Shown: positions 8,901-62,258 of the stretch, in pieces | Position numbering within the stretch: position 1 is the first letter of the stretch | Layout: each line of letters begins with the position of its first letter | Source of the DNA: Leucoraja ocellata | Taxonomy: Eukaryota | Length of the DNA stretch: 64,000 nucleotides | Direction of reading: 5' to 3' | NCBI GenBank assembly: GCA_036785375.1 | Contig: JAWMAR010000216.1 | Coordinates: 2,852,001-2,916,000, forward strand | Position numbers and translations under genes: made by a program | Notes under the pieces: model-generated | Database searches by the model: none | Told to the model about the DNA's origin: nothing | What the model saw: the letters and a program-made list of their open reading frames with translations, nothing else

Positions 8901-11900
8901 AGTTAGTTGATGGATAATGCTCACAGTGCTGTAGCCATGAAGGTGAACAGAATAAGGTGGCTTTTACACAACTGCAAAGTGCGGGGATCAGCAGGGAGTT
9001 ACAGTTTGCAGGAAATCTTACCTAAAGGTCGCATTTCCATTACATATTGAACGCCAGCGTCTGAGGTTGCTCAGGATTTTGTGACGGGTGTTGGCAGACA
9101 GTTGCAGCTTACTTGTGCAAGACCTGATTTTTGTTGGCCTTTGCTTTAGCAAATGACCATCATCTTCAACTACTCTGCCCTAGGGATCTTTTCAGGAACT
9201 CAACCAGAGATCAGGATAGACATAAAAAGCTGGATAGACACAAAAAGCTGCAGTGTCTGGAGAAAATAAATAGTTGACGTTTTGGGTCGAGTCCTTTCTT
9301 CTGACTTAGAGGCAGGGGAGAGGGAAACAAGAGGTATGAAAAGGTACATAGAACAAATTAAAGAAGATCTGTAAATTGGGTGTGCATGATGCAACAGGCA
9401 GGTGTCTGATACCTCAGAGTATCTGTTTACACCAGTTTTGCAAATGTGAATAGATATAAATAAGTTATTTTATATTCACACCATTAAAGGCACAAACTGT
9501 TATGTGGAATCCCGTAAATAATCTGCAAATAAGATTAATATTAATATTTACCTTGGCCGGGTTCAGGAGCATCTTGTTTTTCAATTGATTCTGAAGCAGC
9601 TGTACTAAGTTCTGATGAAATGTCAGGGCTCCTTGGTTCACTTTCTGGGGCCGGCTCATCTTCCATTTCTGTGCCTGTGACAACCTGTGTTTTTAACGTG
9701 TTATTAATTACAGATAATATTCAGAACAAAACTAAATCATTACAGCAATTATGTCAGGTTTCAGAAAATTAAAAGTTTTAAGTTGCACTTGAAATGTAAC
9801 AAAAAGTTTTTTTTTTGTTTATGCAGTATAGATTATTTTCTACATTTAAATTAAACCAAAAATTAAACAATATATTAAAAGTCACATGCTCTGTAATTGG
9901 TGTATTTAAGTTACCAAATTACTGATTATAAGACTCAGCCAAGCAATGATATTGTTACTTTAAGGTAAGCCGAAATTCACTGATATAGCCGAGGTTCTCA
10001 ATCAATATTTTCCATCTTAACCTAGGCAAAGAAGTTATCACAGTGTCCATGCAGCAACAAAAGACCTTGGTGTGCATAGATCTTTGGAAGTACCAGGACA
10101 AGGTTAGACGTCAAAAAAATGTGGCATGGAGTAATGAACCATGAAAGTTATGATCAATTTTAACAAATCACTAGATCATTGATGCCACAATCCTCTCCAC
10201 AATTTAGAAAGAATATTAAGACGTCAGAGAGCTAATAATTACTGAGAATGTTTCAGAGAGGAGAGATTTACCAAACTGCAACTGCATATATCAATAAGGA
10301 CACATAAGTTGCATGTACACTGCTTTGTAAACTAAATTAGTCTCCCTCTGCAATGAATGAAAGTTTTAATCTCATCTTGTCAGAGTTTGCATGGATGACA
10401 GCATTTTTCATGGTATAGAGTCCAAGCATGACTGTACACAGATCAGTTTACAAAAAGGAATATTCTTTATTCTGACAGTAGTTATGATTCCATTATCCAG
10501 CAGCAATCCTCTGTGTTGCCTTTAGGTGAACCATTGCAACAGGTCAACTCACAGCAAATAAGGTATATTTCCGATGTCATGTTTAATGATCCTAAATCTA
10601 GAATCCATAAGCACCTGCACAACAGGCTTCAAACTGCTACAGTTATAGTCGACAACACATCTACTGTATTCCCTACCAGTTTCTGCAAACCCGAGTCACT
10701 CTAGAGAAAACCTACAGTACTCCGCTAAGCTAGTATTAGGTCTGCATCAAATCATAAAATGGTAACAGCACACAACAGCAGTCCATGAGAGCACCATTGT
10801 CAGGTACATTCCTGAGCTCTTTCCCTATAGCACTGCATTTTTCTTTTCTTTTCAAGTCCTAATCCAATTCAATTTTGAAAGCCTCAATTGAATTTGCCTC
10901 CACCACTTTATCAGACAATGCATTCCAGATGCTAACTACGTGTAGTGTAAAATTATTATATTTAATTCTTTTGACAATCACAAATGTTCTTGCTCTGGTT
11001 CTTTATCTTTCAACCAATGGGAACTAATTTTTCTCCATCTATTCTGTCTAGGTCCCTCATTATGTTGACCTCTATCATATATTCATTCAATCTTCTCTGT
11101 TGTAAGAATAATCCCAGAGTCTCCATCATGTGATCAGTACACATTGCGGTTCTGTTGTCAAATGAGAAGTAACAAAACGTTTAAACAAGATAATGGCTTT
11201 TTTTTTCCAAGTGCACACCATACGATTCCAATTGTGCACCTTAATCAAATTATTGACGTCATTCATTATTTATGAATATACCTGGAGAAAAAACATTGTT
11301 TTAAGAGGCCTTGTTAGAGGGTTATAGGATGAATTTGGCATTAACAATTCGCCCTACACTCCAATTCCAAGCTTTTAAGACCCGACTGTGATTTAGTCTA
11401 ACCTGTGAGATGACAGTTGTTTATGCCAAACACAATTTCCTCCATACATTAGATTTAAATCCAAATAGCTGCTATATTGAGGAAAGATCTTCGGTGTGAA
11501 AAAAAACAGACCTTAAAGCTCCTATTTACTCATGCAAAAAAAGATTCATGGCATTATCTTGAGCGCTTTGCAGGTACTTGAGATAGACTGAGGTAACCTC
11601 ACAGCCATCGTTACTGGGACAATGACCAGGCATTCCTGGAGGATACTCAAAAACTGGTGCTACGTCTCTTGTATATACTAATTAAGGGCTTGATATCCAT
11701 TTAAGAACCTTTCTAAACATTTCAGCTCAGGTTGCTCTGGTTTTCTGACTCAACTGAAGTTCATTAAACTAAATATCACAAATAAATATTTCCTCCTTTG
11801 AACCCCATTATGCAGTAACAATAACAACAGTATTCATGGCTACACAACATTCATGAACATCAGTTCCAGTCCAAATTCACCATCACACCACCTTTTCCCC

Positions 11901-14900: not shown

Positions 14901-17900
14901 TCTCGATACGAGTGGTTTTCGAAGTGAGATCAACAGAAACCTTGACAACTTTTGGGGCCAAATTGAATGGAGCTCAGTGATGGTTGAGGGGTAGGGTCAA
15001 TTAAAAAATGCATATTGATAGTTTGATTTTAAATTATTATTGTAATATTGTTCCAGGTGCAGCAGAGGTTCACCTGCACCTCCTCCAACCTCATCTATTG
15101 CATCCGCTGCTCTACGTGTCAACTGCTCTACATCGGTGAGACTAAGCGTAGGCTTGGCGATCGCTTCGCCCAACACCTTCGCTCAGTTTGCAATAACCAA
15201 CCTGATCTCCCGGTGGCTCAGCACTTCAACTCCCCCTCCCATTCCGAATCTGACCTTTCTGTCCTGGGCCTCCTCCATGGCCAAAGTGAGTCCCACCACA
15301 TATTGGAGGAGCAGCACCTCATATTTTGCTTGGGTAATTTACACCCCAGCGATATGAACATTGACTTCTCCAATTTCAGCTAGTCCCTGCTTTCTCCCTC
15401 TTTCCCCTCCCCTTCCCAGCTCTCCCACAGCCCACTGTCTCCACCTCTTCTTTTCTTCTTCCCGCCCCCCCCCCACCCCCACAACAATCTGAAGAAGGAT
15501 CTCGACCCAAAATGTCACCAATTCCTTCGCTCCATAGATGCTGCCTCACCCGCTAAGTTTCTCCAGCACTTTTGTCTACCTTCATTGTAATATTAGTAAT
15601 AACCTGCCAGTTAAAACAATAGAAAAACTCCAATACCTGATGCTAGTAACCACATAAGTTCAAGCCCTTTAGATAAATGAACCCTTGATAGAAAAGGTTT
15701 AGGGTGAGGAACATACTCTCATAAAAATCTGAAAACCATTATTCTGGGCTTCATTAATGTCTACTTTTATTATCACCATTTTATCTGATGGAAGGAAAGA
15801 TAAAATCAATGCAATCTTGGATAATCTGATTTTAAAATTAAGTGGCATCCTATATAGATGAATACATAGTGCTTTGTGAGAAAAGGATCATAACGTCTTA
15901 ATTCACTCAGTAATCTTTGTCAGCACCCCCATTAAAAGCAGCTAGTTATATCTTAAAATGGCTTAATTTGATAGTTTCATTATTACATCAGTTTTGAACT
16001 AGACTTATCAATTCCTCCACGACTTGTGCTGGAAACTGTTCCAAAACTCACCACAAAAATGAACAATTCACACCATGACCAATACCTTAATTTGTGTTAG
16101 CTACATGTTTTTGTCTGCTCCTTACATGGAAAATACAATTTATATAATAGTAAATACATGACTCCAAAATGTTTATTATCAGGTTATTGACAATTAAAAA
16201 AGAGATGTTACAGAGGCCGACCCACCTAAGGACCCCCATGACTGCCAACATTCAACTATGTAAGACAGAGCAACATTCACCCCTCTTGTACTGTCACTGA
16301 GACAGAGGCCACCTGCCCTCATCATTGGTGTAACAATACGATACAATACAATATGATGAAAGAAAGTCTGAGCTTGTATTCACTGGAATTTAGGATGAAA
16401 GAGGATCTTATAGAAACATATAAAATTCTTAAAGGATTGGACGTTAGATGCAGGAACAATGTTCCCGATGTTGGGGAAGTCCAGAACCAGGGGTCACAGT
16501 TTAAGAATAAGGGGTAGGCCATTTAGGACTGAGATGAGGAAAAACTTCTTCACCCACAGAGTTGTGAATCTGTGAAATTCTCTGCCACAGAAGGCAGTGG
16601 AAGCCAATTCACTGTATGTTTCAAGAGAGAGTTGTATTTAGCTCTTAGGGCTAAAGGAATCAAGGGATATGGGGAAAAAGCAGGAATTGGGTACTGATTT
16701 TAGATGATCAGCCATGATCATATTGAATGGCAGTGCTGGCTCAAAGAGCCGAATGGCCTATTCCTGCACCTATTTTTCTATGTTTCTATGATGGAACTTT
16801 ATCCCAGGAGGGAAATTGATCTGCCAAGTTGCTTTAACTGATAAAGCAACCCGACCCTATTACTAATCCCGGAGAATCATTTTGATTCTCTTTATGAATA
16901 TCACTGTTGCTAGCAGTGGGAGACTTCGGCTGATACAACAGGTAAATGATTCCACACAGAAATAGAGTTCTAGGGAGGAGTCAGCATTGCAATACCCTGT
17001 TGGATGAGCACCGGCGTTAAGATCTTCTGGGGCATTAATCTATCCGGGGACCCCAGTAGAGAAACAAAAGTTCTTTGATTCTCATCTGCTGCTTTCAGTG
17101 TTCTTAATGTGGCCTCCTTTACTTCGGTGAGACTAAGCGTAGATTAGATGACTATCTTGCTGAACATTTGCACTCGGTATGCCAAGGCCTGCCGGATCTC
17201 CCAGATGCTAATCTTTTTAACTCGCCTTCCAATTCCTAAGTGGACCTCTCTGTCCTGGGCCTCCTCCATTGCCTGAGTGAGGCTACACGCAAATTGAAAG
17301 AATAGCACATCGTCTTCCACTTGGGTAGCTTACAACCTATGAACGGTATGAACATTAAATTCTCCTATTTGAATAACTAACCTGCACCCCCCTTTTGATT
17401 ATATTTATTTATTTCCCCCCCTACCCTCTTTCTTTCCCATGTCCCACCTGGATTCACACTTCTCCCCCCACTCCCATCCCTGAGTAAACTGAACTATTCA
17501 ATTAACAAACCTGAAACTATACAAGTGAATAAAATGTTGTTACCAAAATTGAGTCGTCGGTTAGGTCAGATAACGATTCTTTATGTTCCTTTCTCATTGG
17601 CATCTTTTCTGGTTCTTGCTTCCGAACCACTTTAGCTTGATCCATTGTCACTATGGATGCATTCGGCGGCATATAAGAGATCATCCATTTTAATTCAACA
17701 TTTATGGTGCCGACGACTTGTTCTTCAGTGTTTCTAAGTTCAAATGTACCTGGAGGTAAATGAATAAGAGTGTATTACAAAGAGAACTCATTGAGTGAGC
17801 ATAACAATTTCAGATTAGGATCCAAAAAACTGGAGTAAATATATTAACAACAGGAAGATGCATTTTCCAAAAGGAAAAGTTAAAAATAATTATTACCAGA

Positions 17901-32900: not shown

Positions 32901-35247
32901 TGCATAAAACATTTCAAGCATTCCACTGTCACAATCTAGCTGATATAAATTGAGTTCAGGTAGGTAAGCATCTTACTTTGGTGAAAAACTTCATGCGATC
33001 TTTTAGTTCATCCAACTGTTGCTTGTGTTCCAGATAGTGCAACTGGAGTTCTTTGTTCTCCTGGGAGAGTCGTTCGTTTTGCGCTGACATTCGTCCAAGA
33101 ATAAACGGAATGATGCAAAAGTAAACCCAGACAACAATGCGTTAAAATAAAATGTAATCATGACAGTGGTAAAGGAAATCAAGCATGCAGAAACTCAAAT
33201 GCTGACCACAATTCCTTCAGAAACGCTGAGGGAAATTTTCCCCCAAGTACTGCATATATACAGCACGCTCCATAATGTTTGGGACAAAGACCCGTCCTTT
33301 ATTTATTTGCCTCTGTACTCCACAATTTGAGATTTGTAATATAAAAAAATCACATGAGGTTAAAGTGCATATTGTCAGATTTTAATAAAGGCAATTTTTA
33401 TACATTTTGATTTCACCATGTAGAAATTACAGCACTGTTTATACATAGTCCCCCCCCATTTCAGGGCACCATAATGTTTGTGACACAGCAATGTCATGTA
33501 AATGAAAGTAGTCATGTTTAGCATTCTGTTGCATATCCTTTGCATGCAATGACTGCTTGAAGTCTCAGATTCATGGACATCACCAGTTGCTGGGTGGCTT
33601 CTCTGGTGATGCTCTGCCAGGTCTGTATTGCAGCCATCTTTAGCTTGTACTTGTTTTGGGGGCTAGTCCCCTTCAGTTCTCTCTTCAGCATATAAAAGGC
33701 ATGCTCAATCAGGTTCAGATCGGGTGATTGACTTGGCCACTTTTTAGCTTTGAAAAACTCCTTTGTTTCTTTAGCAATATGTTTGGGGTCATTGTCTTGC
33801 TGTAGAAAGAACCGCCGGCCAATGAGTTTTGAGGCATTTGTTTGAACTTGAACAAATAGGATGTGTCTATACACTTCAGAATTAATTATGCTACTACCTC
33901 TACCATCAGCAGTTGTATCATCCACGACAATAAGTGAGTCAGTACCTTCAGCAGCCATACATGCCCAGGCCATACCAACCCCACCATCGTGTTTCACAGA
34001 TGAGGTGGTATGCTTTGGATCTTGGGCAGTTCCTTCTCTCCTCCATACTTGGCTCTTGCCATCACTCTGATATAAGTTAATCTTAAGGTAGACAAAAATG
34101 CTGGAGAAACTCAGCGGGTGAGGCAGCATCTATGGAGCGAAGGAATAGGTGACATTTCGGGTCGAGACCCTTCTTCAGACCGTTAATCTTAATCTCATCT
34201 GTCCACAAGACCTTTTTCCAGAACTGTTTTAAGTACTTCTTGGCAAACTGTAACCTGGCCATCCTATTTTTGCGGCTAACCAGTGGTTTGCATCTTGTAG
34301 TGTAGCATCTGTATTTCTGTTCATGAAGTCTTCTGCGGACAGTGGTCGTTGACAAATCCACATCACAGAGGATCTGACATGGACAACACACGCTGCCACA
34401 ATGCTGAGTAAGGCAAGGCAGCGCCTTTACCACCTCAGGCAGCTGAGGAAATTCAGAGTCTCTCTGAGGATCCTTCAGTGCTTCTACTCTGGGGCTGTAG
34501 AAAGCATCTTGTCCAGCAACATCACAATCTGCTTTGGGAACTGCTCTGCCCAGGACAGGAAGGCTCTGCAGAGTAGTGTGTTCGGCCGAACGCATTATGG
34601 AAAACTACACTCGCCCCCCTGCAGGACCTATACATCAGAAGGTGTAGATCCAGAGCCAGCAACGTTATGGGGGACCCCGACGACCCCAGCAACGGACTGT
34701 TCCAACTGCTACGGTCAGGCAAATGCCTCCACTGTCATGCTGTGAAAACAGAGAGGATGAGGCGCAGTTTCTTTCCACAGGCTGTCAGGACTGTAAACTC
34801 TTATTTCACAAGGGATTAATTTACTGTACTAATTTACTGTTGTTGTGTCTTTTTAAAATTGTTGTTTTTTTTTCTAACATGTAAATATTGATTCTGTTCT
34901 ATTTTGTTCTGTAGTTTTTGCACAATCTGCAGGCATTGTCACTTTCATTTCACTGCACATCTTGTATGTGTATGTGACAAATAAAGTTGATTTGACTTCT
35001 TTGACTTTTATTGGCACCACTTTGGTCCTCATATTGATAAACAGCAATAAAAGTTTCCAAAGGTGATGGTAAGACTGGTGGAAAAACTAAGTGCTGCATT
35101 ATACCTGCATTAAGGAGCCAATTAAACACACCTGAGCAATTACAAACACCTATGAAGCTATGTGTCCCAAACATTATGGTGCCTTGAAATGGAGGGGGGA
35201 CTATGTATAAACACTGCTGTAATTTCTACATGGTGAAACCAAAATAT

Positions 35248-35306
<59 letters not shown>

Positions 35307-50300: not shown

Positions 50301-53300
50301 TGAGCTTTTGGACCTTTAAGATAATATGAAAATGTTTATTGTGGTACGAAAGTTATTTTGTGTTCTACAATTTAATAAATGAATGGGATCATCTAATTTG
50401 TGCAGCTGTTCCACAAGATCAATACATCTATTAAAAAAATCATGTTAGCACTAAAAAGGATTTTCTGATTAAATAAGTTACTTGCACGTGAGCCACAAGT
50501 ACATCTATATGTCCAAAGCCTTTTTTTATACAAAAAGGAAATGAAACATGTGTGGAACACATGACAGCAGAAAGATTTTCAATGAGAACTGTACATGCCG
50601 CCACAACAAACCTGTATTACTGTGCTGCTCTCTAAATTGTTTACATGCAGTAAACAAATAAAAATGATGTACAATTTCCAATTTAATTACTGTGGTTATT
50701 TTGTGGAACACATTGTTGCACGAGTGCTTCTCTCTCTCCAGTGAATAATTTGTGACAGTGATTGTGGGTTATCATATTTTATGCTCTATCTTTCAACAGG
50801 ATAGTAACATATCTGCCTGATCTTGTCCATTATTTGTCCATGGTTCACCATTCTGTATTACTCTGTGCAACTAGATTTACTACACTTTTGTACTAAAATA
50901 AATAATCATGTAAACTTCAAAGTAAGACAGTTTTATCTCTTGCACTGAAACAATGAAAGCAAAGAATAATCATTAACTCATATTGCACAATATTTTCAAA
51001 AACCCTAAGCATACAAAATAATAAGCAACAGCAGTTTTAACTTATTTTTAATCATAGGACCCAATTTCATAAACCCACATCTTTATCCTGGTTGCAATTG
51101 CAATATTTTATAGTTAAAACAAAAGCAGACAATAATTCTTCATTGTTTTTAATCTTTATTTACTTCACTTTCAATTATTCTTGGACCCTTATCCGCCTAA
51201 ACACCAGCATAAGTTCCTAGGACATAGGAGCAGAATTAGGTCATCGCTGATCTATTGTTCTCTCTCAATCTCATTCTCTTGCTTTATCCCTGTAACCTGA
51301 CACCTTTAAGGACCTGTCCCACTTTCACGAGTTTTTCACAAATTCTCCCGAGTTTTCCCCTTGATTCAAACTCGCAGAATGTTCGTAACGAGTCCGTAGG
51401 AGTTCGTAGATATATCGTAGCGGCTCGTTATGCTAGCCGTAGGTACTCGTGGCATCAGGTAAGTCGGGACGTTTTTTCCAGCCCGATAAAAAATGTCCAC
51501 GAGTAAAATAATGGTGGGGATGAAAGAAATTGCAACTTTTTACTCATAAGGAGGGCATCGAAATAGTCGTGGAAATTCGTAGACATACTCGTAGGAGTTC
51601 GTGAACATAGTCGTGGAAGGTCGTTGGAGTTCGTAGATTACCACAACCTTGTTTTTTTTTTTTTAAAGGTCCTTTAAGCTCGGCAGAGGTTTTGAATTTA
51701 GTCGTGAAAGTGGGACAGGCCCTTTACTAATCAATAACCGATCAAACTCTGCTTTAAAAATAACTGCTGACTTGGCTTCCACAGCCATCTATGGCAATGA
51801 ATTCCACAGATTCACCACCGTCTGGCTAAAGAAAGTCTGCCTCAGCTCCATTCTTTTATTCTGAGGCTGTGCCTTCTGGTCCTAGACTCTCTGACAACTG
51901 GAAACATCCTCTTCACATCCACTTTATCTAGGCCTTCCATTATTCGGTAAGTTTCAATGCAATCCTCCCTTATCCATCTAAACTCCAGCGGGTACAGGCC
52001 CAGAGCCATCAAACGCTCCTCATATGTTAACCCAGTCATCCCTGGGATCATTCTCATAAGCTTCCTCAGGACCTTCTTCAGAGCCATCACATTCTTGCTC
52101 AGAGCCATCACAAAACTGCTCACAGTATTCCAAATGTGGGCTGACCACTGCCTTATAAAAACTTGGCATGACGTTCTTGCTTTTATATTCTAGTCCTCTC
52201 AAAATGAATGCTAACAATGCATTTCCTTTCAATACCTTTGAGAACTTATTTTTAAATGAACAAATACCCCTTTTTTGATATGTTTTCGAAAATCAACGTA
52301 CCAATGAACTGACATTTTTTTGTATTGGGGCAGGACTTTGCTGGCTGTAAAAGTTGTAAGTTATTTAATTAATTAAAAATATATCTGAATTTCAGAGTAA
52401 TTGACAGTGAAATATATAGATTTTAAAAAATGTAGAATTATTTGTCTTTTTAAAGTAGAATTATTTACCACAAGTAATTGAAAATAAACTACATTAATAT
52501 TAATAAAATAATATATTTTCTTTTACCTCTAAATCCTTATGCTATAACTCCCAAATATATCAAGAAGGGCTCAAAGCCTGTAACCAGTTTGATCTAATGA
52601 AAATCTCAGAGGCAATTCCCCAGTGAAATGATGGCCAAAACTGACAGAAGGGCTGCATTTCATTGCTGAGTCTTCAGGAGGGGATAATAATAGTCCACTC
52701 TTTCTGGGATTGGAATCGGCCTTCCAAATCAATGGGTAACTTCCAGCTTCTATGTTGCACAGTACTTGCTTGGAAGCATAGGATTTGCTTCACTCTCAAT
52801 GTTTGAATGGTTCTGATCGGAATAAGTGGCAATAGTCACAACTAACTAGCTCAATGAATGCTATGCCGACTTATGATCAGTGTCAGCCAATTTGTTTAAC
52901 TCAATTTGCAATTATTTCACGTCCCTTGACCAGATTTGAAAAAACAACAGCAACCCACCAGTATTGTAACCCACCAGTCAGAAAATGCAATGAATCAATT
53001 TAGCAGAGATAAGTTTTCATTTTGCAGCAAATCTATTTGAGATCTATCAACCTTGTAAAAGATGTTAATAGATGGATAACATATGTGGTAGAATGCAGAC
53101 ATTGAGGCAACTTTCTTCAGTTAAAATATTAAGTAATGAAACATTATGTAGAGCACATTTCCACATCTACAACCTTTTGTTCAAAGTTGGACCACAACAA
53201 CGGAAAAAACATGATTTTAATAAAGGAAAATAAGTACTTTGACATTTATTTCAAAGCAACCTAAACTCTGCAAAATTATTAGTTCTTGTTACAAGAAAGC

Positions 53301-56300
53301 TATAGGAAAGTAGTCAAGTAAGATCACAAGCACAATTTAATTAGATTTATGAGTATTTTAAAGGAATTTGATCAAGCCATTGCTTTAAAAGGTTATCAAA
53401 TAATCTCTTGGATATCTGTGCTTCAATATTTAATTCAAACACGTACAAGTGAACAATTTCTTAATGACATTTAATTTGACAATGCACTTTAGGGCAGCAC
53501 ACTGGTGCAGCTGGTAGAGCTGCTGCCTCACTGCGCCAGAGATCCAGGTTCGATCTTTATGTGGAGTTTGCACATTCTCCTTGTGACTGGGTTTCCTTCT
53601 AATGCTCTGATTTCTTCCTACATTCCAAGGACGTGCAGGTTTGTAGGTTAATTGGCTTCTGTAAATTGACCCTTGTGTATAGGGAGTGGATGTGAAAGTG
53701 GGATAACATAAAACTAGTGTGCGGGTGATCGATGGTTCGCATGGATTTGGTGGGCCAAAGGGCCTGTTCCTATGCTGTATCTCTAAACTAATCTAAACGT
53801 TCTTCTATTTAAAAATCTCACGGTCTACATCACAGAAATTACAAGTCCCTGAAATGATTACAAAGTTCTTGGCTTTATAATTCTATTTAGATGTCTATTC
53901 CAATTAATCACTGCTTTTGGAGAGACGTTGTTCTGGATATCATTCTAAAAGCTGCTTATCACCACGGCACTGGCCCACTGGTTAAACTATACAGGTCGAA
54001 GTGATGTAATGGACTTCATTAGCTTAGGGATATCGTGTGGTTGTGACAAGAAAGATGTTTAATTATCAACTTCTCTAACTGCTATATTCTTGACTATACC
54101 TTTCAACTATTTTGCTGAAAAAAACCTTGGAGTACATTTTGCGAACCACTAAATTAATTTAATGCAAGGGGTTTATTTGTATTATTCATAAAGGGTTCAA
54201 TATAATTGTGTAAATTATAATATCACTAAGGTTACTCATTGACATCAATAATAGATTTTTTTGTTCCATCTACTGATTTGAGGAATATTTTGGGACATGT
54301 GGAAGATCATTTATTCACATCTTAATTTTGAATTCAGTGAACAACTAATATCCATAGAAATCAATGTAATTTAGCATTTTATATGTTGTCCATTGCATGG
54401 CAAGTGCAAAATTGTTTATTGCTGTGCAATGACTAATTAATATCAAATCTAACCGTTTATAGACTGCAGCTTTATTTTCAGTGAGATTTTATTACATACA
54501 TGCAGTGACAATTTTTGGGTTTAGCAGCAGCTGTTAACTGTTGGAAAATAATTCAACTTCAAAACTACAATGGTATTGGTTCCAATTGATTTGTTGCCAT
54601 TGTGGGTTTTAAGTACTCTGCTATTCTTTTAACAATTGCTATTAGAGAAATTGTGCTCTGAAAGCTTTCCAGAATGCAAAACAGTAGGGGAGTTTTAAAT
54701 GTAAAGCGTGATCAAATGATTTGGACAAAAATTGCTGTAATTACAATGTACAGTCATTAATTTCTTGGCTTCAATTATAAATGTTCAAATAATTCAATTA
54801 TAATCTGGTCATAAAGAACTGAATTACCTCTGCCCTGTTGCTTGATGCTCTCTGAGATGCAGAAGAGACTCTTCATGTTCTTTATCCTTCATCCGCAGCT
54901 CTTCTCTTAGTATCTCAACAGTTTGTTTCATCTCTTCCATCTGCATCTTCTGAGATGTAATGCAATTCTCACTAAAGATAAAATATCGGAGACTATTAAC
55001 CCAGAAAGGAGACTTTCTCTTCTTATATATTTTATAAATATACTGAAAACGCCCATTAATATAGTTAAAATAAAATTGGTTAAAAGTGTATTAAGGTGAA
55101 TAAATAGCAAGATAAAAGCTGGCACACAGGTCCAGTGATGTCAAAGGGAGAGCATGCCTGTAATCAATATTCAGATGTTTTACAGATTTTAAACATCACC
55201 AAAAAACAATGGAATATTTTCAGAAATATTAACGGCTTTCTATTTCGTTTCAAAATCAAACATATTAAAATTAAAATAATTACATTTACAATGCAGAGCG
55301 AGTTTGTATAAAATTTCATCCTTGGCCAGGTATTCACCATGTGTAATGTTATGGTTATAATAATCCACTTCTGAAATTTGAATCCACTAAAGCCAAAGTA
55401 ACTAATTTTGCAAACGGAGTATCATGCTCAAATGGTGTTACAATCAGTGTTTAGTACATAAAACCAAGGATGTACTTCCATCTCACCTTATTTTTTTCAG
55501 CCTCTTAGTATCATTTTCTTATCTTTCTTCAATTTTCTATTGGTAGAGAGAATTTAAATTTGGAGTCTGAAGAAGGGTCCCAACTGTAATTGTCACCTAT
55601 CCATGTTCTCCAGAGGTGTTGCCTGACCTGCTGGAGATACTCCAGCACTTTGTGTCTTTTTTTTGTAAACCGGCATCTGCAGTTCCCCTTTCCTTCAGCA
55701 TGTAAAGTGGCACTGAATAACCTGTTGGCATGGTCCAATCCTAAACTCATTGCCTCATCTCATATAACCCACAAAGTTAATGACGAGTTGTGAACTGGTA
55801 TAAGGATGAGTAGCAGTTTTCCAGCTGCTATGGACTCGAATGAACAATCTGTTAAAGACTGGGTGTATCAATGATTCTGTGGTTACTCATCAGATTTCCT
55901 AATACACTTATGAATGCATGCCTACAAAGTAGTATAACAGTAGTTAAAAAGCGAGTCTTACAGATTCCGTACTTCAGCCCGAGCATCTTCAAGCAAACTA
56001 TGACCATATCTGGGAACAATAGGTTGGCCACACTTTGTTGTCAGCTCTGGGTCTTGAACTCTGATTCCTAAATGGATAATATACAAAGATTTTTTTAAAA
56101 ACATGCCAATGAAATAACAAAGCAAACAAAACACATTCTGCCTGACCTACTGAATTACTCCAGCACTTTGTGTCCTTTTGTGTAAACCAGCACCTGTAGT
56201 TCCTTGTTTCCATCAATCGCATACAATTTAGTCATGGAAATGGTTTGTTGCTGGTACAATTTTAAAATTCATCCTCTATTCAGGCCAGGGGTTCTTTAGC

Positions 56301-59300
56301 AATGGTAGAGAACAGTCTAGTGAAGAATTGGAAAGGATCTTTGCTGATAAGTTTGCAGTGTAGACTTTGAGTAATTACTGTGTCTAGTAAGGTTCGGACA
56401 TTTAATAAAATGCATTTAACATTTCTAATTGGAACAGTTATATAATTTGCTTTGTATGTCCTATAATACATACAATGGGACATCTCCATCAAAACTGCTG
56501 AGTACACACCTGATGAATGTGGCTTTATCAATGTACAATATGCTGTGTTATATCACTAGCCTACTCTGTTAATTTGGCACATTACCAACTGTCCCCACAT
56601 CCTTGGTCCATCTAAGGTAAATATGAAAGGAAGTTCTGGGATACATTATAGTAATTATATTTATCCGTTTCCAAAATCCGTTATATTTAATTATTGTAAA
56701 GTACAAATTCTACTTTTGTCTGTAGATTTACATCAGGGATTGGAATTGCTTCTTCTTTCCAAGTCAATTAGAGTGCTTGGAACAGATGATGAAGTTGGAT
56801 TGCTCAAACCACCAGTGATTGTTCTGGAGGCATTTAAATAACACTATATTAAATTGAACAACTGGAAGTTAAGCTTATTTTTCGCTGTGATGTGAAAGGT
56901 AAAAATGAAGTATGAGATAATTAAGAACAACTTGAAACAAAATTAATGAATACTGAAGGAAATGATACTTCTTCAGTGGAGCAGATAATGGCATACTTTT
57001 CTTTCTATAGTGGATGACTCAACTAACAGACTGTCATTTAGCTAAACTGCTAAGATTCTCCAAATGTTGAGAGTGTATTGAAAGCTCTAGGAATTAATTT
57101 ACCAAAAGGTCAGATTAAAGGTTGGAATAACAACATCTTTTACCCAGTGGTGCAATATTAGTTGTAAATTAATTATCAAGCTGAAATACTGGCTTGGATT
57201 TTACAGGAAGTAATCAAATTACATTGCTTGTCTGACCTTAGGAAGCTGCCGACAAAGATCTATTGACCTCTGTGGCACAGGCCTCCCCTTTTCTTTGGAT
57301 CATTCTTGTCAGGCATCAGTTCAAGGGATCCATGCCATGAGTAACAGTGATGTCAACAAGCTGGTTGAGCAGTCAACTACACCGAATAGTTTTAGCAGAC
57401 ATCAAACCGGGCAGCAAAACACCATTTTAAGTTAAAGCATTAAACACACCAAGTATAAAATAAAGCTTGGTTCAGCAAAAGATTACGGTGGAAGATGAAA
57501 TATTGGAAATAAACTTCTTCATGGAAAGTAAAAAAAATTGTAATAATTATTTCCAAAGCTTTACTTAATATAAAAATGTATCCAATAATTTAAAAAAATG
57601 AAATTTTCAGATGGTATGCAACTACCAATGGGTGATGCAAAATACAAATACTGTAAAATACACATACAAAAAGTGTAATACCTTTTTTGACATTCTCCTG
57701 TGCAAAGGTAACTTCTTGAACTTTTTTAAGGCCAGTGTTTATGCGTGACTGCACATAACTATAGGGAGTGTTTCTACGGCCCTGTACTTGCAGCTGCTGT
57801 TTAGAAGCTACTAGCCGATTCCTTAGACCCTCATTCTGCTTCTCTAGTTCACAAACTTTTTCCTGCAGCTCCTCGATCATCTCTTCCATCTCAATATCCC
57901 TGCCTATCCGCTTGGGGCCGCCACTCTCCAACTCAGATCTCTTCTTGTCGTTGACGAGTCTAATTAGCTTGGTAGCCATTCTGAGAACAGGAAAGGAATA
58001 TGAAAAGTCAGCAAAACTACTTTGTTGAAAATGGCATAAACATTGCTAAAGACGTTAGTGTGGATCGTGAATAATACATTTCAGGTTTTGATATAACTAT
58101 TACTGCCTGTGAAGTGTGCTTTGATGTTAATCAAAACCATAGTACTGCAATCTGCTTTATAACACTGACAAATAGCAGTTTCCGAGGGCTTATCATTCCA
58201 GCTTGCTACACAGGCAACACATACTTACTCCATATGCTTGATGAATAACAAATCAAAGGAAGTTATAAAAGGAATATACCATACGTTACTAAGAATAGTT
58301 CCAAAGAGTGGGTGTTGGAGGAATGCAAGTCATGAATCTCATACCTTAACATTGTGTTTGCGCTCTTTACAGTACCACATACAGCGTCAAGAATTTTAGA
58401 CTTTAAACCTCACAAACCAAAAGATGCAATAAAAGTTTAGGTGGTCCTTAATAAAACTCAAGCAATATGGAACACATTATTAATTATAAGTTCCTATCTT
58501 TAGCTTGGCTTTGCAACCTTAAATGAAACAATTGCAAAAATACATTTGAGCAAATAATGACTTTCAGACACAGTTTTGTTTTAAATTCAAGACAGGCCAT
58601 CATGGTTTTCATCTTTAAAAAAAAAATACTCTTAGAATCTACTGTTGGCATTTGATCAACTGTACCTTTGATTCCATCCAGTTTTGATGTGAAATACTAA
58701 CTGGGAACAAAAGTCTATCAAAGGACACATGAGGGTGATGTAATATAGAGTAACAGAAAACATGCATATCGGTGAATGGAAAACACTTGGCACGCTAAAA
58801 AAGGAATAGTGGCTTTGATGAATAGGACAAGTTACAGACCCTATGAAATTGGTCGCACATCTTTAACACTAAGACATTGTGCCTGGTTAATAACAAACTT
58901 TGCTTTTTGCACTAGGCTTGTCACATGCATAAAATAATATTTTAATTTATTTGTTTAAGGTGTGTGATGTGCTCTGCTGTGCCACATGCCAATTGCCAGA
59001 TTTAAGTAGGTAACAGTGTATTCAAATATATTTATACATCAGACAAGGCTGAACAAATGCACATGTTGAGTAACCTTCAAATAACAATTAAATTTAAAAC
59101 AAAAACTATTAAGATTGGTTAAACTTTTCCTTTATTGAAACATGTTTTATGGAATCTTATAGATGGAGTTAATTTCAAGAAAAATGAGAGGGTAATTCAT
59201 CAGACTATTTATTCTTGTTTAACTACTTTGACACAGCAAGTGGTTCAATAAATGTCTGTTAAAATATTATTGGTTTAATTAAAATTGTACCATGTTTCTC

Positions 59301-62258
59301 CCAGGCAGGTTAATTTCTAGGCCAATTTATTTGCTATTTTAATATCCTGCTGTCTAATCATCTCACAAATGGCAATGATCTAAACATTTTCTTATTACCA
59401 ACATAAAATAATAACTGGTGCTAATTAGAGATTCTTCTTTTTTTCTAACTATTTAGAGTTTCACATTTTTAACTGTCAAAATAATAATAATGATGAGAGA
59501 ATCAGGTCCAATCTGATTAACTCAATTTTTCAAATTAGGATGAGGAGCAAACTACTCCTATAATCTTAGTAGAATTTCCAAACTTTGTACAACACTAAAA
59601 CAAAATTAAAATGGGGGAGCAATTTAGAAAGTACAGTCATCCTGTTTGTAATATTTTTAATTTCCTCAAATAATTCTAATAAAGCAGTGCTAAAGCTATA
59701 CATATAGTACCATGGCATTAGTGTCATAAAATGTGTGTACTGTATACTTAAAAGCCAATCTTGTTCAGATTATTACATTACAATCAAATTACATTTATAA
59801 TATCACAACTCTTGTTAAGCTTTAACCTTCAAATATTTATTGATAAATTTATTCACCTTTCTTTACAAAATGTTAGTTTGAACTTTTTGATTTGGCCTAC
59901 ACCTTTATTTTAGATACAAATGCTCAATCTAAATCACTGAGTTCTTTCCAATTGTTTCCACGTGTTTGCTGCATACGGGAAGATGATCTAGCCATGAATA
60001 GATTTCATTTCAGTGAATCCGGCTGTTATTTTAAAATTATTTATTTATGGGATGTGGGTGTTATTGGCTCGGTTAGTCAGTGCACTGTACCTTTGAGAAG
60101 ATATTGGAGAGGTGTTTTCTTGAATGGCTGCTCCTATAATGCTAAGTAGGGAGTGCCAGGTGCAGTGATGAAGATGGACTGGCAGTATATTTCCTTCTGC
60201 AATATGTGAAAGTATGAAGGATACTTGGTGCACATGTTGTCTTAAGTGATAGATGTTGGATGGTGCTGTAAATAAACTCAGTCAGTGAGTTGCTCCAGTA
60301 AATATTTGATAAATTACAAGTAACATTTGGCTCACACAAGTGTTAGGTAGTGACTTTCTTCAACAAGAGAGAATATAAATGCCTTTCAAAAGTAATAGTG
60401 CCAAAGATATGATGGTTTTAAACTACAGCGAGTTGCTTTTTGCTCTGTTATGGTGTTAAAAGTGAACGTTTATTCAAAGTGATGGCTGAGGTAACAATCA
60501 AGTAAGCTTGTTTGTGCTGTATTGTCCGATATAAATACTTGATTCTCCCAGGCAAATATAAATTATTTCAAATAGTCTGCCTATGTTACGTGGATGGTGA
60601 AAAGATTCTGGTGTGTCAGGAGGCGAATTGTTCAACACAGAATACACAGCCTTTGTTTTACTCATTGGTCTGGTAATGCTTATGATGGTCAATGACTGGT
60701 TTTGCCACAAGAAAAATGGTGATGGGTGATTCAACAATGGGAAAGCTTTCTTTCCCCATTTTCTCACAATACAGGAGACATTCAGATCACCAGGTCTATG
60801 CTGACTCTCAAAGTAACCCCAAAATTTTAATTTCCCTAATTAGTTCCAAGTAATTTTTTCTCTCTACCATTCGATTTGACTCCCACCTGATTCTCATGAC
60901 ACCATCTCCACTGGGGCAATTTAGCAAATTAACCCAGCAACCACAGAGCAGAAACGAGGAACTGCAAATGCTGGTTAATACACAAAATGACACAAAGAGT
61001 TGGAGTAATTCAGCAGGCCAGGCAGCATCTCCGGAGAACATGGGTAGGCGACGTTTCAGGTTGAGACCCTTCTTCAGAAGGATTTAGACCCAAAATGTCA
61101 CCTATCCATATTTTCCAGAGCTGCTGCCTGACCTACTGAGTTGGCACGTCTAAAATGGAAGTTGTGGGAAGGCATTTATATTCCCTCTTGTTGGTCCTTT
61201 GCAAGCTGGCTGCCCTTTTCAGGCAGCGCCTCCTGTAGATCTCTTCGATAGTGGGGAGGTCAGTAACTGTGAGAGACCTGGCAGTGTCCACCACTTTCTG
61301 TAATCTCCTTTCTTCCAGGGCATTCGAGTTGCTGAACCAGGCTGTGATGCAAGCAATCAATATGTTCTCTACTGTACACCTGTAGAAGGTCAAGAGAGAA
61401 TTCTTCGACATACCAAATCTCCTCAATCTTCTAAGGAAGTAGAGGCGTTGTTGGTCTTTCTTTATGATTGCATCAATGTGCTGGGTCCACTACAGATGTT
61501 TAGTTATGCAGGCCCAGAAAGGTCTTGTTGACACTCTCCACCACTGACCCATCGATGATGTCAGGTTAGTGGATCATAGAAACATAGAAAATAGGTGCAG
61601 GAGGAGGCCATCTGGCCCTTCGAGCCAGCACCGCCATTCATTGTGATCATGGCTGATCGTCCCCTATCAATAACCCGTGCCTGCCTTCTCCCCATATCAC
61701 TTGATTCCACTAGCCCCTAGAGGTCTATCTAACTCTCTCTTAAATCCACGTCCTTCCTCTTCTAAAGTCAATAATCAGCTTCTTGGCTATACTGACGTTG
61801 AGAGCAGATTCTTTTTTCCAGCACCATTCAATCAGATCTTACTAATAAATGATCTTGTGTCATTTTAAGGTAGATATTGGGGATTGACAGACACCCAATC
61901 TCAGAGACCAACATCCAGTAAAGGTCTCTGTTCTGGGAATTAAAATTGATTGCAATTGTTTTAATGTACTCAAAGTAGCATAAAAAGATTTTGAAAATAA
62001 CATATTTTCTTGCCTTGAAAAATTGTAATATATAATATAATGAAATTCAAAGGTCATAATACTTTCTTAACACCTGTTAAATCGCTGACGGTGGAGAAAA
62101 CAGAAACACTAACCTTTTAATTTTATCTTCTTGTTTTCGTGCATGTTGCTTGAGTAAAAGATTTTCATCATGGAGCCGAAGAAAGCGATCTTCCAGCTCT
62201 TCACGTGAGATGCGAGACACTGCTTGGCGAGCTCTAGTGTTCTGTACACTTGTTGACT
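5898..62258 (-). CDS. RPGRIP1L: RPGRIP1L (protein fantom), partial multi-exon CDS: 20 exons equivalent to human exons 3-22; coiled-coils, two C2 domains and acidic linker
   Basis: The exon peptides match RPGRIP1L ([85 protein letters not shown]). All junctions are GT-AG, phases join without stops, and 14 of 20 exon lengths equal the recalled human lengths. Confidence 0.97.
6402..6803. mobile_element. MITE-like DNA element, probably Tc1-mariner/pogo (Tigger)-type
   Basis: TA followed by caggtccactaccgattttccgg, with an imperfect inverted copy ccggaaaattggtggagtg at ~6781-6799; GC-rich interior in AT-rich flanks. Confidence 0.55.
7045..7528 (+). mobile_element. CR1-clade LINE 3' fragment (HER1-like tail)
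   Basis: ERLQRRFTR...[17 protein letters not shown]-terminal motif; tail ggtcggcatgggcaagtt-gggcgaag...gtgctgtatgtctct. Confidence 0.85.
8020..8155 (+). mobile_element. CR1 LINE 3' tail
   Basis: Near copy of 7390-7528, ending ggggccgaagggcctgttttcgtgctgattgactctat. Confidence 0.8.
9552..9684 (-). CDS. RPGRIP1L: RPGRIP1L exon 21 equivalent, 133 bp (acidic linker)
   Basis: aaacacag|GTTGTC...CAAG|gtaaat; [44 protein letters not shown]; phase 0 to 1 as required by the next exon; weak polypyrimidine tract. Confidence 0.75.
11963..12251 (+). mobile_element. tRNA-derived V-SINE (HE1-type)
   Basis: A box tggcgcagcgg, B box ggttcgatcc, V-domain ggagtttgtacgttct, tail gtgggccgaagggc...ctaaactaaa. 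Confidence 0.9.
12529..12627 (-). CDS. RPGRIP1L: RPGRIP1L exon 20 equivalent, 99 bp (divergent linker)
   Basis: aatttgcag|TTACAA...AATCGG|gtatgt; [33 protein letters not shown]; phase 0-0, expected size and order, weak peptide similarity. Confidence 0.72.
14524..14613 (-). CDS. RPGRIP1L: RPGRIP1L exon 19 equivalent, 90 bp
   Basis: caatttag|GTACCG...AGTTCG|gtaagt; [30 protein letters not shown]; RRVSW aligns with human KKVSF; phase 0-0. Confidence 0.85.
15050..15583 (+). mobile_element. Penelope-like element 3' fragment (GIY-YIG endonuclease plus terminus), 11-bp TSD
   Basis: [34 protein letters not shown]; flanked by attgtaatatt at 15039-15049 and 15584-15594. Confidence 0.92.
16365..16790 (+). 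mobile_element. CR1 LINE 3' fragment
   Basis: ttgtattcactggaattt...gaggatcttatagaaacatataaaatt; tail gccgaatggcctattcctgcacctatttttctatgtttctatg. Confidence 0.85.
17115..17380 (+). mobile_element. Degraded Penelope-like GIY-YIG fragment
   Basis: Colinear with 15125-15380 (cggtgagactaagcgtag, ctgtcctgggcctcctccat). Confidence 0.8.
17544..17749 (-). CDS. RPGRIP1L: RPGRIP1L exon 18 equivalent, 206 bp
   Basis: cctccag|GTACATTT...ATTTTG|gtaaca; [29 protein letters not shown]...; phase 1 to 0. Confidence 0.92.
17897..18245 (-). CDS. RPGRIP1L: RPGRIP1L exon 17 equivalent, 349 bp (second C2 domain)
   Basis: cccatag|GAACATACT...TCTG|gtaata; [18 protein letters not shown]...[29 protein letters not shown]; in phase. 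Confidence 0.95.
18718..18915. mobile_element. Penelope-derived terminus in inverted (palindromic) arrangement
   Basis: gcgggtcaggcagc-actctggagaacatggatagg ... cctatccatgttcttcagagacgctgcctgacctgc inverted arms. Confidence 0.75.
19999..20150 (-). CDS. RPGRIP1L: RPGRIP1L exon 16 equivalent, 152 bp
   Basis: aatgcag|GTGTCGG...CAACAG|gtaaat; [41 protein letters not shown]. Confidence 0.96.
22008..22087 (-). mobile_element. Short Penelope terminal fragment
   Basis: Matches 34087-34181 and 49272-49368. Confidence 0.75.
23780..24072 (-). mobile_element. Degraded HE1-type V-SINE
   Basis: ggagaacgtgtaaactccacacagacag (V-domain, reverse) and a tRNA-like head ending tactgtgcctccc. Confidence 0.75.
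24244..24696 (-). CDS. RPGRIP1L: RPGRIP1L exon 15 equivalent, 453 bp (first C2 domain)
   Basis: tttttcag|CCCAACTC...GTTG|gtgagt; [18 protein letters not shown]...[16 protein letters not shown]...[16 protein letters not shown]. Confidence 0.97.
25497..25677. other. Assembly gap (181 N)
   Basis: Run of N within an intron; the flanking exons join in phase, so no required exon is hidden. Confidence 0.99.
26962..27079 (-). CDS. RPGRIP1L: RPGRIP1L exon 14 equivalent, 118 bp
   Basis: atttttag|AATGAG...GAAG|gtatgt; [39 protein letters not shown]. Confidence 0.95.
30348..30665 (+). mobile_element. HE1-type V-SINE (well preserved)
   Basis: gggcggcacagtggcacagcgg..gagttcgatcc..ggagtttgttcgttctccc..gggccggtttccgcgctgtatctctaaactaaac. 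Confidence 0.92.
31107..31286 (-). CDS. RPGRIP1L: RPGRIP1L exon 13 equivalent, 180 bp
   Basis: gttatag|GTTCGT...TATCAG|gtagtt; [18 protein letters not shown]...[31 protein letters not shown]. Confidence 0.96.
32025..32295 (+). mobile_element. CR1 LINE 3' fragment (degraded)
   Basis: tttttacacagagaatagtgggtgcctg..; tail gtgggctgaagggcctgtgc. Confidence 0.7.
32660..32710 (-). CDS. RPGRIP1L: RPGRIP1L exon 12 equivalent, 51 bp
   Basis: atttcag|GAGAGT...ATAAAG|gtactg; [17 protein letters not shown]. Confidence 0.94.
32977..33083 (-). CDS. RPGRIP1L: RPGRIP1L exon 11 equivalent, 107 bp
   Basis: atgtcag|CGCAAAAC...ACCAAA|gtaaga; [35 protein letters not shown]. Confidence 0.94.
34087..34181 (-). 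mobile_element. ~95-bp Penelope terminal insert with 11-bp TSD inside the Tc1 transposase
   Basis: gttaatcttaa at 34076-34086 and 34182-34192; the transposase tripeptide KIN is duplicated on both sides. Confidence 0.9.
34361..34998 (+). mobile_element. Rex1/Babar-like LINE 3' fragment (DUF1891-type domain)
   Basis: [15 protein letters not shown]...[28 protein letters not shown]; tail gtgacaaataaagttgatttgact. Confidence 0.85.
35249..36099 (-). mobile_element. CpG-rich non-coding retroposon, copy C, inserted in the Tc1 right TIR; (TCTA)n tail
   Basis: The TIR sequence resumes exactly after the insert with atata duplicated; tail gtggcaataaatta(tcta)n. Confidence 0.85.
36242..36377 (+). mobile_element. 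CR1 LINE 3' tail
   Basis: Matches 16639-16790. Confidence 0.8.
38474..38754 (-). mobile_element. HE1-type V-SINE
   Basis: Reverse complement of the SINE consensus seen at 11963 and 30348. Confidence 0.88.
39440..40265 (+). mobile_element. Old, degraded CR1/L2-type LINE 3' region (related pieces at ~8440-8890 -, ~12900-13390 +, ~60040-60370 -)
   Basis: Shared decayed tail of the form aaggcagctcaccaccacc...ggcaataaatgctg..cttgccag. Confidence 0.55.
40518..40657 (-). CDS. RPGRIP1L: RPGRIP1L exon 10 equivalent, 140 bp
   Basis: ggttacag|TGCTTTT...AGAG|gtatct; [46 protein letters not shown]. Confidence 0.96.
41620..41714 (-). mobile_element. Short Penelope terminal fragment
   Basis: aggtagacaaaaatgctggagaaactcagc..gacgttttgggttgagacccttctccag. 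Confidence 0.85.
41713..42182 (+). mobile_element. CR1 LINE 3' fragment (HER1-like tail)
   Basis: ctggaaagggtacagaaaagatttacgaggatgttgccagga..; tail gggccgaaaggccagtttccacactgtatcactctatgact. Confidence 0.88.
42852..43095 (-). mobile_element. Rex1/Babar-like LINE 3' UTR fragment
   Basis: The minus strand ends gtacacgtgacaataaactaaagtaaactaaac. Confidence 0.6.
43910..44055 (-). mobile_element. CR1 LINE 3' tail
   Basis: ataggtgcaggagtaggcaattcggcccttcgagccagc.. (reverse of the 16.7 kb tail). Confidence 0.8.
44062..44157 (+). mobile_element. Short Penelope terminal fragment
   Basis: gtctgaagaaaggtctcgacccaaaacatcacccattcc..gatgctgcctgtcccgctgacttactccag. Confidence 0.8.
44715..44788 (-). CDS. 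RPGRIP1L: RPGRIP1L exon 9 equivalent, 74 bp
   Basis: ttcattcag|CTAAAA...AACAG|gtacct; [25 protein letters not shown]. Confidence 0.95.
45382..45528 (-). CDS. RPGRIP1L: RPGRIP1L exon 8 equivalent, 147 bp
   Basis: ttttacag|AACCAG...GAAGAG|gtattt; [49 protein letters not shown]. Confidence 0.95.
46418..46523 (-). CDS. RPGRIP1L: RPGRIP1L exon 7 equivalent, 106 bp
   Basis: attatag|GACAACT...CAGGAG|gtaaga; [35 protein letters not shown]. Confidence 0.95.
46770..47100 (-). mobile_element. HE1-type V-SINE
   Basis: gtacaaactccacacagacagc..gttgaacccgggtctctggcgttgtgaggcagc. Confidence 0.85.
47458..48698 (-). mobile_element. Non-autonomous Helitron (1241 bp)
   Basis: Minus strand: A|TCTATATATTACTAAAAC ... 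AGGGCCC-AAT-GGGTCCT hairpin, then CCTTGATCTAG|T. This gives 5' TC, 3' CTAG, an A/T insertion site and no TSD. Confidence 0.85.
49272..49993 (-). mobile_element. Penelope-like element 3' fragment (CCHH-like region plus GIY-YIG endonuclease and terminus)
   Basis: [45 protein letters not shown]; homologous to 15050-15583. Confidence 0.92.
49337..49369 (-). ncRNA. Minimal type I hammerhead ribozyme motif (Penelope-associated), intact core
   Basis: Minus strand AGU-CUGAAGA-A-GGGUC-UC-GACCC-GAAA-C-GUC-ACU: CUGANGA and GAAA core, 5-bp helix II, loopless palindromic helix III (ACGU), GUC cleavage triplet, 3-bp helix I. Confidence 0.75.
51222..52230 (-). mobile_element. CR1 LINE 3' fragment split by a MITE
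   Basis: [22 protein letters not shown] and [19 protein letters not shown]-terminal motifs. Confidence 0.85.
51309..51723. mobile_element. PIF/Harbinger MITE (415 bp)
   Basis: TIR aggacctgtcccactttcacga / tcgtgaaagtgggacaggccct; TTA TSD at 51306-51308 and 51724-51726; the host CR1 sequence rejoins across it. Confidence 0.9.
53492..53798 (+). mobile_element. HE1-type V-SINE
   Basis: gggcagcacactggtgcagctgg..ggttcgatc..gtggagtttgcacattctcc..gggcctgttcctatgctgtatctctaaacta. Confidence 0.88.
54828..54971 (-). CDS. RPGRIP1L: RPGRIP1L exon 6 equivalent, 144 bp
   Basis: tatctttag|TGAGAAT...CAGAG|gtaatt; [48 protein letters not shown]. Confidence 0.94.
55564..55690 (+). mobile_element. Short Penelope terminal fragment (second subfamily; related pieces at ~56136-56212 and ~62390-62470)
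   Basis: agtctgaagaagggtcc..tgtcacctatccatgttctccagag..gcatctgcagttcc. Confidence 0.75.
55962..56067 (-). CDS. RPGRIP1L: RPGRIP1L exon 5 equivalent, 106 bp (not in the ORF track)
   Basis: ccatttag|GAATCAGA...GAATCT|gtaaga; [36 protein letters not shown]; phase 1 to 2. Confidence 0.93.
57682..57980 (-). CDS. RPGRIP1L: RPGRIP1L exon 4 equivalent, 299 bp
   Basis: ttctcag|AATGGCT...AAAAG|gtatta; [14 protein letters not shown]...[22 protein letters not shown]. Confidence 0.96.
60950..61142. mobile_element. Penelope-derived terminus in inverted arrangement centred on the hammerhead core
   Basis: caggcagcatctccggagaacatgggtaggcgac ... gtcacctatccatattttccagagctgctgcctg. Confidence 0.8.
61200..61835 (-). 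mobile_element. Rex1/Babar-like LINE fragment (DUF1891-type), interrupted by a CR1 tail at ~61575-61748
   Basis: [40 protein letters not shown]; inserted catagaaacatagaaaataggtgcaggag.. Confidence 0.82.
62114..62258 (-). CDS. RPGRIP1L: RPGRIP1L exon (human exon 3 equivalent), 145 bp
   Basis: ctttcaactcag|AGTCAACA...AAAAG|gttagt; [48 protein letters not shown]. Confidence 0.96.

Follow-up and report, generated by a model that had tools for sequence, protein, structure and literature searches.

Background

The Penelope-like elements (PLEs) of metazoa carry minimal hammerhead ribozymes, which Cervera and De la Pena (2014, PMC4209133) report from Xena, Poseidon and Neptune elements of fishes, with about 4,000 motifs in coelacanth and about 9,000 in Xenopus. 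The motif described there has a CUGANGA core, an extra base between positions 9 and 10.1, a G10.1-C11.1 pair and a loopless palindromic helix at 15.2-16.2; it lies in the pLTR and occurs mostly as dispersed single copies. In the same report single motifs did not cleave, and dimers, even adjacent ones, cleaved weakly in vitro. A CX2-5CxxC linker and a CCHH motif in the endonuclease mark the Neptune and Nematis elements among PLEs (Craig et al. 2021, PMC8557442). In the anole Poseidon element PAc, which belongs to a different clade from the skate element considered here, Frangieh et al. (2024, PMC11167929) describe a ribozyme for which cleavage required the element's protein, a main template of uncut RNA, two internal start sites of reverse transcription that define a tail, and RNA-seq data in which reads ending at the cut site were absent. 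Animal non-LTR retrozymes (bioRxiv 10.64898/2026.07.22.740005; PMC7761336) are reported to be derived from PLE pLTRs and to carry type I hammerheads in head-to-tail tandems; their units measure tens to hundreds of bases, which makes dimers possible.

Here we analyse 64 kb of the genome of the skate Leucoraja ocellata (the whole stretch is referred to as the window), in which a preliminary description had seen an array of about ten minimal hammerhead motifs in RPGRIP1L introns, the best-preserved in pre-mRNA sense. The intronic ribozymes of amniotes, the HH9 and HH10 hammerheads and the CPEB3 ribozyme, are single conserved loci that fold as monomers. The skate motifs resemble them in being of a self-cleaving type, intronic and in sense, but exist as tens of thousands of repeat copies, without strand preference and without a helix III. 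We conclude, with a probability of roughly 0.88, that the motifs arose by separate insertions of the pLTR, the end that bears the hammerhead, of a very abundant Neptune-type element, that they are decaying passively, and that they likely have no part in the processing of RPGRIP1L pre-mRNA.

Results and discussion

Hammerhead motifs of the window

The host gene is on the minus strand, with exons that match C2-C2_1 (PF11618) at 24236-24802 and C2 at 17880-18245, and FTO starts on the opposite strand just beyond the window. The C2-C2_1 domain and the FTO neighbour fit RPGRIP1L, where we take RPGRIP1L-FTO synteny to name the gene. The five exon positions given below for 45382-57900 come from contigs of two runs of a related organism, presumed to be RNA. 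A profile built from the window copies gave 16 matches at 14 places, against 0 in the reversed-sequence control, and a 28-mer of the motif gave six matches with up to three mismatches, where 0.00 were expected. The features are as follows.

9218..9308, minus: decayed copy, broken core
15051..15583, plus: another copy truncated on its 5' side, with a GIY-YIG tail (frame 15033-15383); opposite in orientation to the host gene
18756..18915, both strands: decayed head-to-head inverted pair with tail
22006..22093, minus: short copy without the 5' core
31781..31843, minus: old decayed copy, absent from the preliminary description
34087..34181, minus: short solo copy with palindrome AUGU and an 11-bp target duplication, inside a Tc1-type transposase relic
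39312..39397, plus: old decayed copy, likewise absent from that description
41623..41715, minus: short copy, A6 and G12 altered
44060..44154, plus: short copy, G12 and palindrome altered
45382..57900, minus: five host exons (45382-45528, 46418-46522, 54827-54971, 55962-56066 and 57681 onward) in one open frame of 240 aa
49272..49995 (upstream edge approximate), minus: 5'-truncated Penelope-like copy, with linker end bearing CX4CX2C and GIY-YIG (frame 49214-49933)
49339..49366, minus: strictly intact minimal hammerhead core with CUGAAGA, extra A, 4-bp helix II, GAAA and ACGU palindrome
55562..55657, plus: short copy, GAAA half destroyed
56135..56175, plus: 3' fragment without ribozyme
60989..61142, head-to-head inverted pair (60989-61083 minus, 61070-61142 plus): one long hairpin predicted, helix II probability 0
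62388..62431, minus: 3' fragment without ribozyme

Profile matches cover all ten motifs of the preliminary description on the strands it named, and add four places (31781-31843, 39312-39397, 56135-56175 and 62388-62431) and two inverted partners (18756-18829 and 61070-61142). Its helix II with a 2-base loop is replaced by one of 4 bp with a 4-base loop, as a 2-base loop cannot close a helix II. Nor do the motifs form an array: they are separate insertions, one of them with an 11-bp target duplication. Relative to the host gene, nine matches are in sense and seven in antisense. A position in RPGRIP1L introns holds for the 49-kb copy, which lies in the intron 46523-54826 of the minus-strand gene, while the copies at 9.2 and 15.5 kb are only putatively intragenic.

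Strict criteria for an intact copy were the core, a helix II of 4 bp, a Watson-Crick palindrome and a helix I with no fewer than 2 bp. The sole window match to pass is 49339-49366, whose cut site follows 49339 and whose helix I has 3 bp; 13 of the 16 have a broken or missing core. Three copies had been ranked as intact or nearly so. The one at 49 kb merits this, but that at 34 kb has AUGU as its palindrome, and that at 61 kb is left with 1 bp in helix I and is accompanied by an inverted partner. In the 49-kb copy the GIY-YIG region is followed by a pyrimidine tract, the hammerhead and about 65 bases of downstream sequence; in the 15-kb copy the hammerhead, at 15489, has lost G12.

The contig (C216) holds the RPGRIP1L-FTO region twice, in opposite orientation and about 98.6% identical, likely as two haplotypes joined in one contig; another contig (C87) has a similar 54-kb tandem duplicate. 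Because of such haplotype duplicates within the assembly, genome-wide copy counts are inflated and the true number is lower. All 14 insertion sites of the window are common to both haplotypes, with no polymorphism between them, and the 49-kb core is the same in the second.

An Rfam scan of the window, at E values up to 5, matched no hammerhead family. Its 11 matches were microRNA models, all far below gathering scores and spurious, on a hairpin-capable long C-run and G-run at 47836-48010. The window holds other repeats besides. Nested relics at 33518-34745 comprise a minus-strand Tc1-type transposase (DDE_3, HTH_Tnp_Tc3_2) split by the hammerhead stub and by an ALKBH8_N-matching fragment (34353-34745, plus), presumably the end of a LINE-type frame, with a similar fragment at 61133-61489. 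A more diverged GIY-YIG fragment without a hammerhead match (17192-17370, plus) has 74% identity to the 49-kb copy, and related GC-rich repeats with long stop-free frames occupy 8-462, 2552-3354 and 35226-36021.

The source element

GIY-YIG frames lie upstream of both the 49-kb and the 15-kb motifs, and the window copies keep only this GIY-YIG end of the element. In the frame 49214-49933 the CX4CX2C linker reads CNRRKCYTC, two cysteines lie between the GIY and YIG motifs and two histidines downstream (CCHH). The genome contains 173,073 candidate matches to this frame, of which 150 were scored. The longest frame, of 776 aa (L185), unites RVT_1 (E 8.7e-7; 29.3 bits, just below the cut-off of 29.6), the CX4CX2C linker and GIY-YIG (E 0.0025).

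The hammerhead unit lies 3' of the coding region on the same strand in all 18 loci chosen for long RT frames, and every longer copy is closed by it behind the endonuclease. Five of 14 further loci, representing two distinct insertions, reach the 5' end. One (L211) has, in order, a pyrimidine tract, TCAGT, the hammerhead, end points at about +92 and, where the tail is included, about +130, and an ATG at +164, and in the other (L214-216) the unit also precedes the ORF; in the full-length element the hammerhead thus stands 164 bases before the ORF start. A head-to-head inverted 5' partner is present in 124 of 519 copies and an optional tail in 190 of 689. A pLTR at both ends, the inverted 5' partner and an optional tail of 30-40 bp are published marks of the class, and all are present. 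By its sequence the element is an EN+ Penelope-like element of Neptune/Nematis type, probably Neptune, a clade call based on the linker motif rather than on a tree.

The family has the features of a minimal type I hammerhead (CUGANGA and GAAA core, extra base before helix II, G10.1-C11.1, NUH cut site), and each of its six subfamily groups has ACGU as a palindromic helix III without a loop. It fits the Penelope-type kind that is reported to need dimers, as proposed for the window. In a young subfamily (L211, on contig C156, and L185) helix II is GGGU-UUCG-GCCC and the cut site GUU; U-A has become U-G in helices II and I and C17 has become U, one-sided changes that keep the structure. This subfamily has near full-length copies of 95-99% identity with long frames, and in it the ORF start and the RT are set apart by a long stretch, rich in proline, made up of short repeats. 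The element family looks recently active.

On all sequence features tested, then, the motif is a PLE minimal hammerhead, of a kind already described for fish Neptune elements; it matches the published motif (PMC4209133) in its CUGANGA core, extra base, G10.1-C11.1 pair, loopless palindrome, pLTR position and mostly dispersed single copies. It differs in a short helix II (4 bp), in a helix I mostly of 2 bp (79 of 126 core-intact copies) and in a higher copy number: a single variant has 21,383 exact copies, the assembly containing both haplotypes in part. Compared with the Neptune-clade elements of Craig et al. (PMC8557442), most copies here are stubs of 95-135 bases starting at the ribozyme. 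The two 3' ends and the uncut ribozymes seen here fit the two internal start sites and the uncut template of PAc (PMC11167929), whose ORF begins within helix II with the tail inside the ORF; here the ORF begins 164 bases after C3 and the tail is 5'-untranslated. The tandem retrozymes have the pLTR origin and the type I hammerhead in common with the window copies, but the latter are single or head-to-head and kilobases apart. Our literature search, which took in few subscription papers or Repbase and Dfam entries, found no description of this family from sharks or skates; the supplement of PMC4209133 may list cartilaginous-fish motifs.

The 21,383 exact 28-mers comprise 10,582 forward and 10,801 reverse copies, against 0 for a control. 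Their density is 0.4 per 64 kb assembly-wide, compared with one in the window, and that of the unit is 30 per 64 kb in introns of the five other genes described below, compared with 16.

Strand and core conservation

The three best window copies are indeed all on the sense strand, which for three of three has a chance of 0.125. The sense bias that the preliminary description had tentatively drawn from them was examined in 1.6 Mb from five large genes, namely FTO and four Laminin-G genes, probably neurexin- or CNTNAP-like, with strand taken from exon matches rather than annotation and the stretches assumed to be intronic. From 776 profile matches we removed the 16 of the window, 16 of uncertain gene assignment and 44 assembly duplicates (31 identified via shared flanks, the remainder from one duplicated block), leaving 700 in 1.49 Mb.

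No such bias is found in these genes: 345 copies are in sense and 355 in antisense (p = 0.73), and strictly intact copies number 27 and 26, respectively (sense share 95% interval 0.37-0.65). The balance is similar for copies that reach the ribozyme (224 and 229), for those bearing GIY-YIG (21 and 21), and for intact same-strand neighbours within 15 kb (5 sense, 6 antisense). Copies with the core present and helix II of at least 3 bp divide 64 to 51 (p = 0.26), exact 28-mers 14 to 7 (p = 0.19) and those with up to one mismatch 38 to 27 (p = 0.22), falling to 71 to 64 with up to two and 104 to 102 with up to three. The best-preserved classes thus lean, non-significantly, in the direction first proposed, and the lean is missing in the functionally defined class; a modest bias is possible.

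Of 654 aligned copies, 198 had TCAGT as an anchor outside the core. These served to assess conservation of the core, each being compared with whichever of the six subfamily groups was nearest to it. Differences occupy 97 of 1946 cells at non-CpG core positions (5.0%) and 517 of 7248 at invariant downstream positions (7.1%; p = 0.0006, or 0.013 by column); with gaps counted the values are 6.6% and 8.1% (p = 0.026), and in the two young subfamilies alone 2.2% and 3.6% (p = 0.16). Non-CpG core positions are thus slightly more conserved than their neighbours, a point on which the preliminary description had made its reading depend, yet the excess is equal on both strands, with changes in 52 of 1013 sense cells (5.1%) and 44 of 874 antisense cells (5.0%), and absent at the essential G12. 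This base, in a CpG, is altered in 47 of 192 copies, compared with 42 of 195 for the loop-II G, and 45 of the 47 changes are G>A, so that the proposed CpG-type decay of GAAA to AAAA is borne out in the aligned copies. The palindrome bases are altered in 43 and 46 of 191 copies. Moreover, the excess is confined to A (3.7% versus 8.3%), and for the endonuclease region 44 dead copies, a different copy set and hence a rough control, have A changed at 4.6-5.4%. We read the gap as variation among source elements outside the core, together with base context, without protection after insertion. The marks of a host-domesticated ribozyme, sense preference and core protection after insertion, are absent: 27 versus 26, 5.1% versus 5.0%, and G12 altered at the CpG rate.

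RNA and folding at RPGRIP1L

The three best copies lie in three different introns, 12-15 kb apart. Seen from the 49-kb copy, the 34-kb copy is 15.2 kb downstream, beyond two or more exons, and the 61-kb copy 11.7 kb upstream, beyond three or more. Folding models, which ignore tertiary contacts and proteins, place the 61-kb copy inside a hairpin of -88 kcal/mol with its inverted partner and give the 49-kb copy, in context, a helix I probability of 0.00 and a helix II probability of at most 0.26. The predicted helix III amounts to -3.1 kcal/mol for the 49-kb copy with the 61-kb copy and -1.3 kcal/mol with the 34-kb copy. The separate introns, these weak pairings and the predicted locking of the 61-kb copy in its hairpin all speak against the proposal that two sense copies pair and cut one pre-mRNA.

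In contigs of the related organism, which may lack the 49-kb insertion, the intron 46523-54826 is spliced out directly. Raw reads of another related organism (polyA-selected, about 6% of the run, a library type ill-suited to the purpose) contained no pile-up of molecule ends or starts; repeat reads are not assignable to the RPGRIP1L locus. In an apparently stranded polyA library from a related organism, the repeat-derived reads at 44000-44463 and 49104-50031 represent both strands (278 versus 368 for the bin with the intact copy), as copies passively riding host transcripts would be expected to do.

Origin of the short copies

Upstream shared sequence is absent in 227 of the 519 copies that reach the ribozyme's 5' edge (duplicates not yet removed), and one full-length insertion (L214-216, three loci) also begins at this edge. 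Target duplications of 8-16 bp flank 37 of 191 solo copies, the 34-kb copy among them; ten mismatched controls gave 0-8. In 31 of the 37 the duplication stops 0-6 bases short of C3. In head-to-head inversions, 58 of 124 arms begin at positions 0-3. Starts number 342 at the 5' edge and 15 in the cut-site bin (n = 689). We considered whether 5' truncation or inversion at the cut site had preserved a trace of past cleavage, and there is no such peak, positions 26-29 holding five of 124 inversion arms. As the cut site is not where copies start, their templates were likely uncut, and copying probably halted at the ribozyme's edge.

By analogy with the anole element, reverse transcription would start inside the RNA at two preferred 3' end points and run 5'-ward. 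On read-through RNA this would give 5'-truncated long copies such as those at 49 and 15 kb, and a frequent stop at the ribozyme's 5' edge would give stubs of 95-135 bases, or two stubs head to head. After insertion the motif mutates whichever strand it occupies, the ribozyme presumably being kept by selection on the active element and not on host loci. Tentatively, the stubs may be cDNAs of a strong-stop-like kind, and their 5' edge would then mark a transcription start of the element just in front of the ribozyme; a candidate start at TCAGT would explain the sharp stub edges. A literature search, with subscription papers largely outside it, found no description of solo pLTR stubs marking a start site.

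Another candidate explanation of the edge, an intron whose 3' splice site is the pyrimidine tract and CAG before the ribozyme, as in Drosophila Penelope, is not supported. A spliced-junction pattern had 175 matches, but all three examined are unspliced subfamily variants; the putative donor is not retained in the young subfamily; and none of the 15 listed among 2,103 joints is a spliced joint for such an intron.

Alternative explanations

The stubs could instead be a self-propagating SINE-like family with its own internal promoter, comprising a TCAGT start and a downstream element that overlaps ACGT. TCAGT resembles the initiator consensus. The 227 edge-reaching copies without shared upstream sequence and the 31 duplications ending just before C3 are compatible with such a family, as are the internal promoter reported for Drosophila Penelope (PMC2377424) and the Inr-like TCACT noted in a rotifer pLTR (PMC3846280). 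We consider it unlikely, as the subfamily sequences of the stubs are common to long copies and an informal comparison found no stub-only subfamily. An extra G of the kind derived from a cap is also not consistently present at stub 5' ends. Independent propagation alters the origin of the stubs, not the verdict on the host gene.

Two further possibilities would give the ribozymes a role in host RNA. That two sense copies in one RPGRIP1L pre-mRNA pair via ACGU and cut it, and that sense copies are retained for this reason, could draw on the orientation of the three best copies, the 49-kb core intact in both haplotypes, the four helix III pairs that can be drawn for both heterodimers, and the 14 to 7 division of exact copies elsewhere. 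We regard it as extremely improbable, given that intact copies and their same-strand pairs are evenly divided, that core decay is equal on both strands, that the partners lie in other introns, with the 34-kb copy lacking the palindrome and the 61-kb copy predicted to be sequestered, that the 49-kb copy is predicted not to form helix I and seldom helix II in context, and that even adjacent dimers are weak in vitro (PMC4209133). Intact sense copies might otherwise cut host pre-mRNAs occasionally, for instance in the germ line with the element's protein, and be mildly harmful or tolerated, the latter because a cut intron can still be spliced. Activation of the anole ribozyme by its element's protein (PMC11167929), the young, 95-99% identical copies with long frames in a recently active family, and the under-representation of tandem retrozymes reported for Xenopus introns (bioRxiv 10.64898/2026.07.22.740005) would agree with this. 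Harm, however, predicts fewer intact sense copies, and the counts are equal or lean the opposite way; no pile-up of read ends was seen in the related organism, and tolerated cutting would be invisible in strand counts. Such cutting seems to us improbable.

Conclusions

We favour the reading of the motifs as passively decaying insertions of the hammerhead end of a Neptune-type element. The locus adds another fish Penelope family with a known minimal hammerhead, and is of use both as a resource and as a negative control: ribozyme-bearing copies, present in introns in their hundreds of thousands without strand preference, argue that the motifs are inert outside the element's RNA-protein particle. 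The sharp stub ends are a large natural data set on how Penelope reverse transcription starts and stops. With 27 intact sense copies in 1.49 Mb, or roughly one per 55 kb of intron, thousands of genes carry one. It is conceivable, though highly improbable, that an expressed element's protein, or its abundant RNA pairing in trans via ACGU, could activate these dormant ribozymes, so that host pre-mRNAs are cut across the genome; the even strand counts would in that case imply tolerance of cut introns. Cleavage of pre-mRNA by intronic copies, if it took place, would represent the first protein-switched cleavage system that is carried by a transposon and acts on host RNA.
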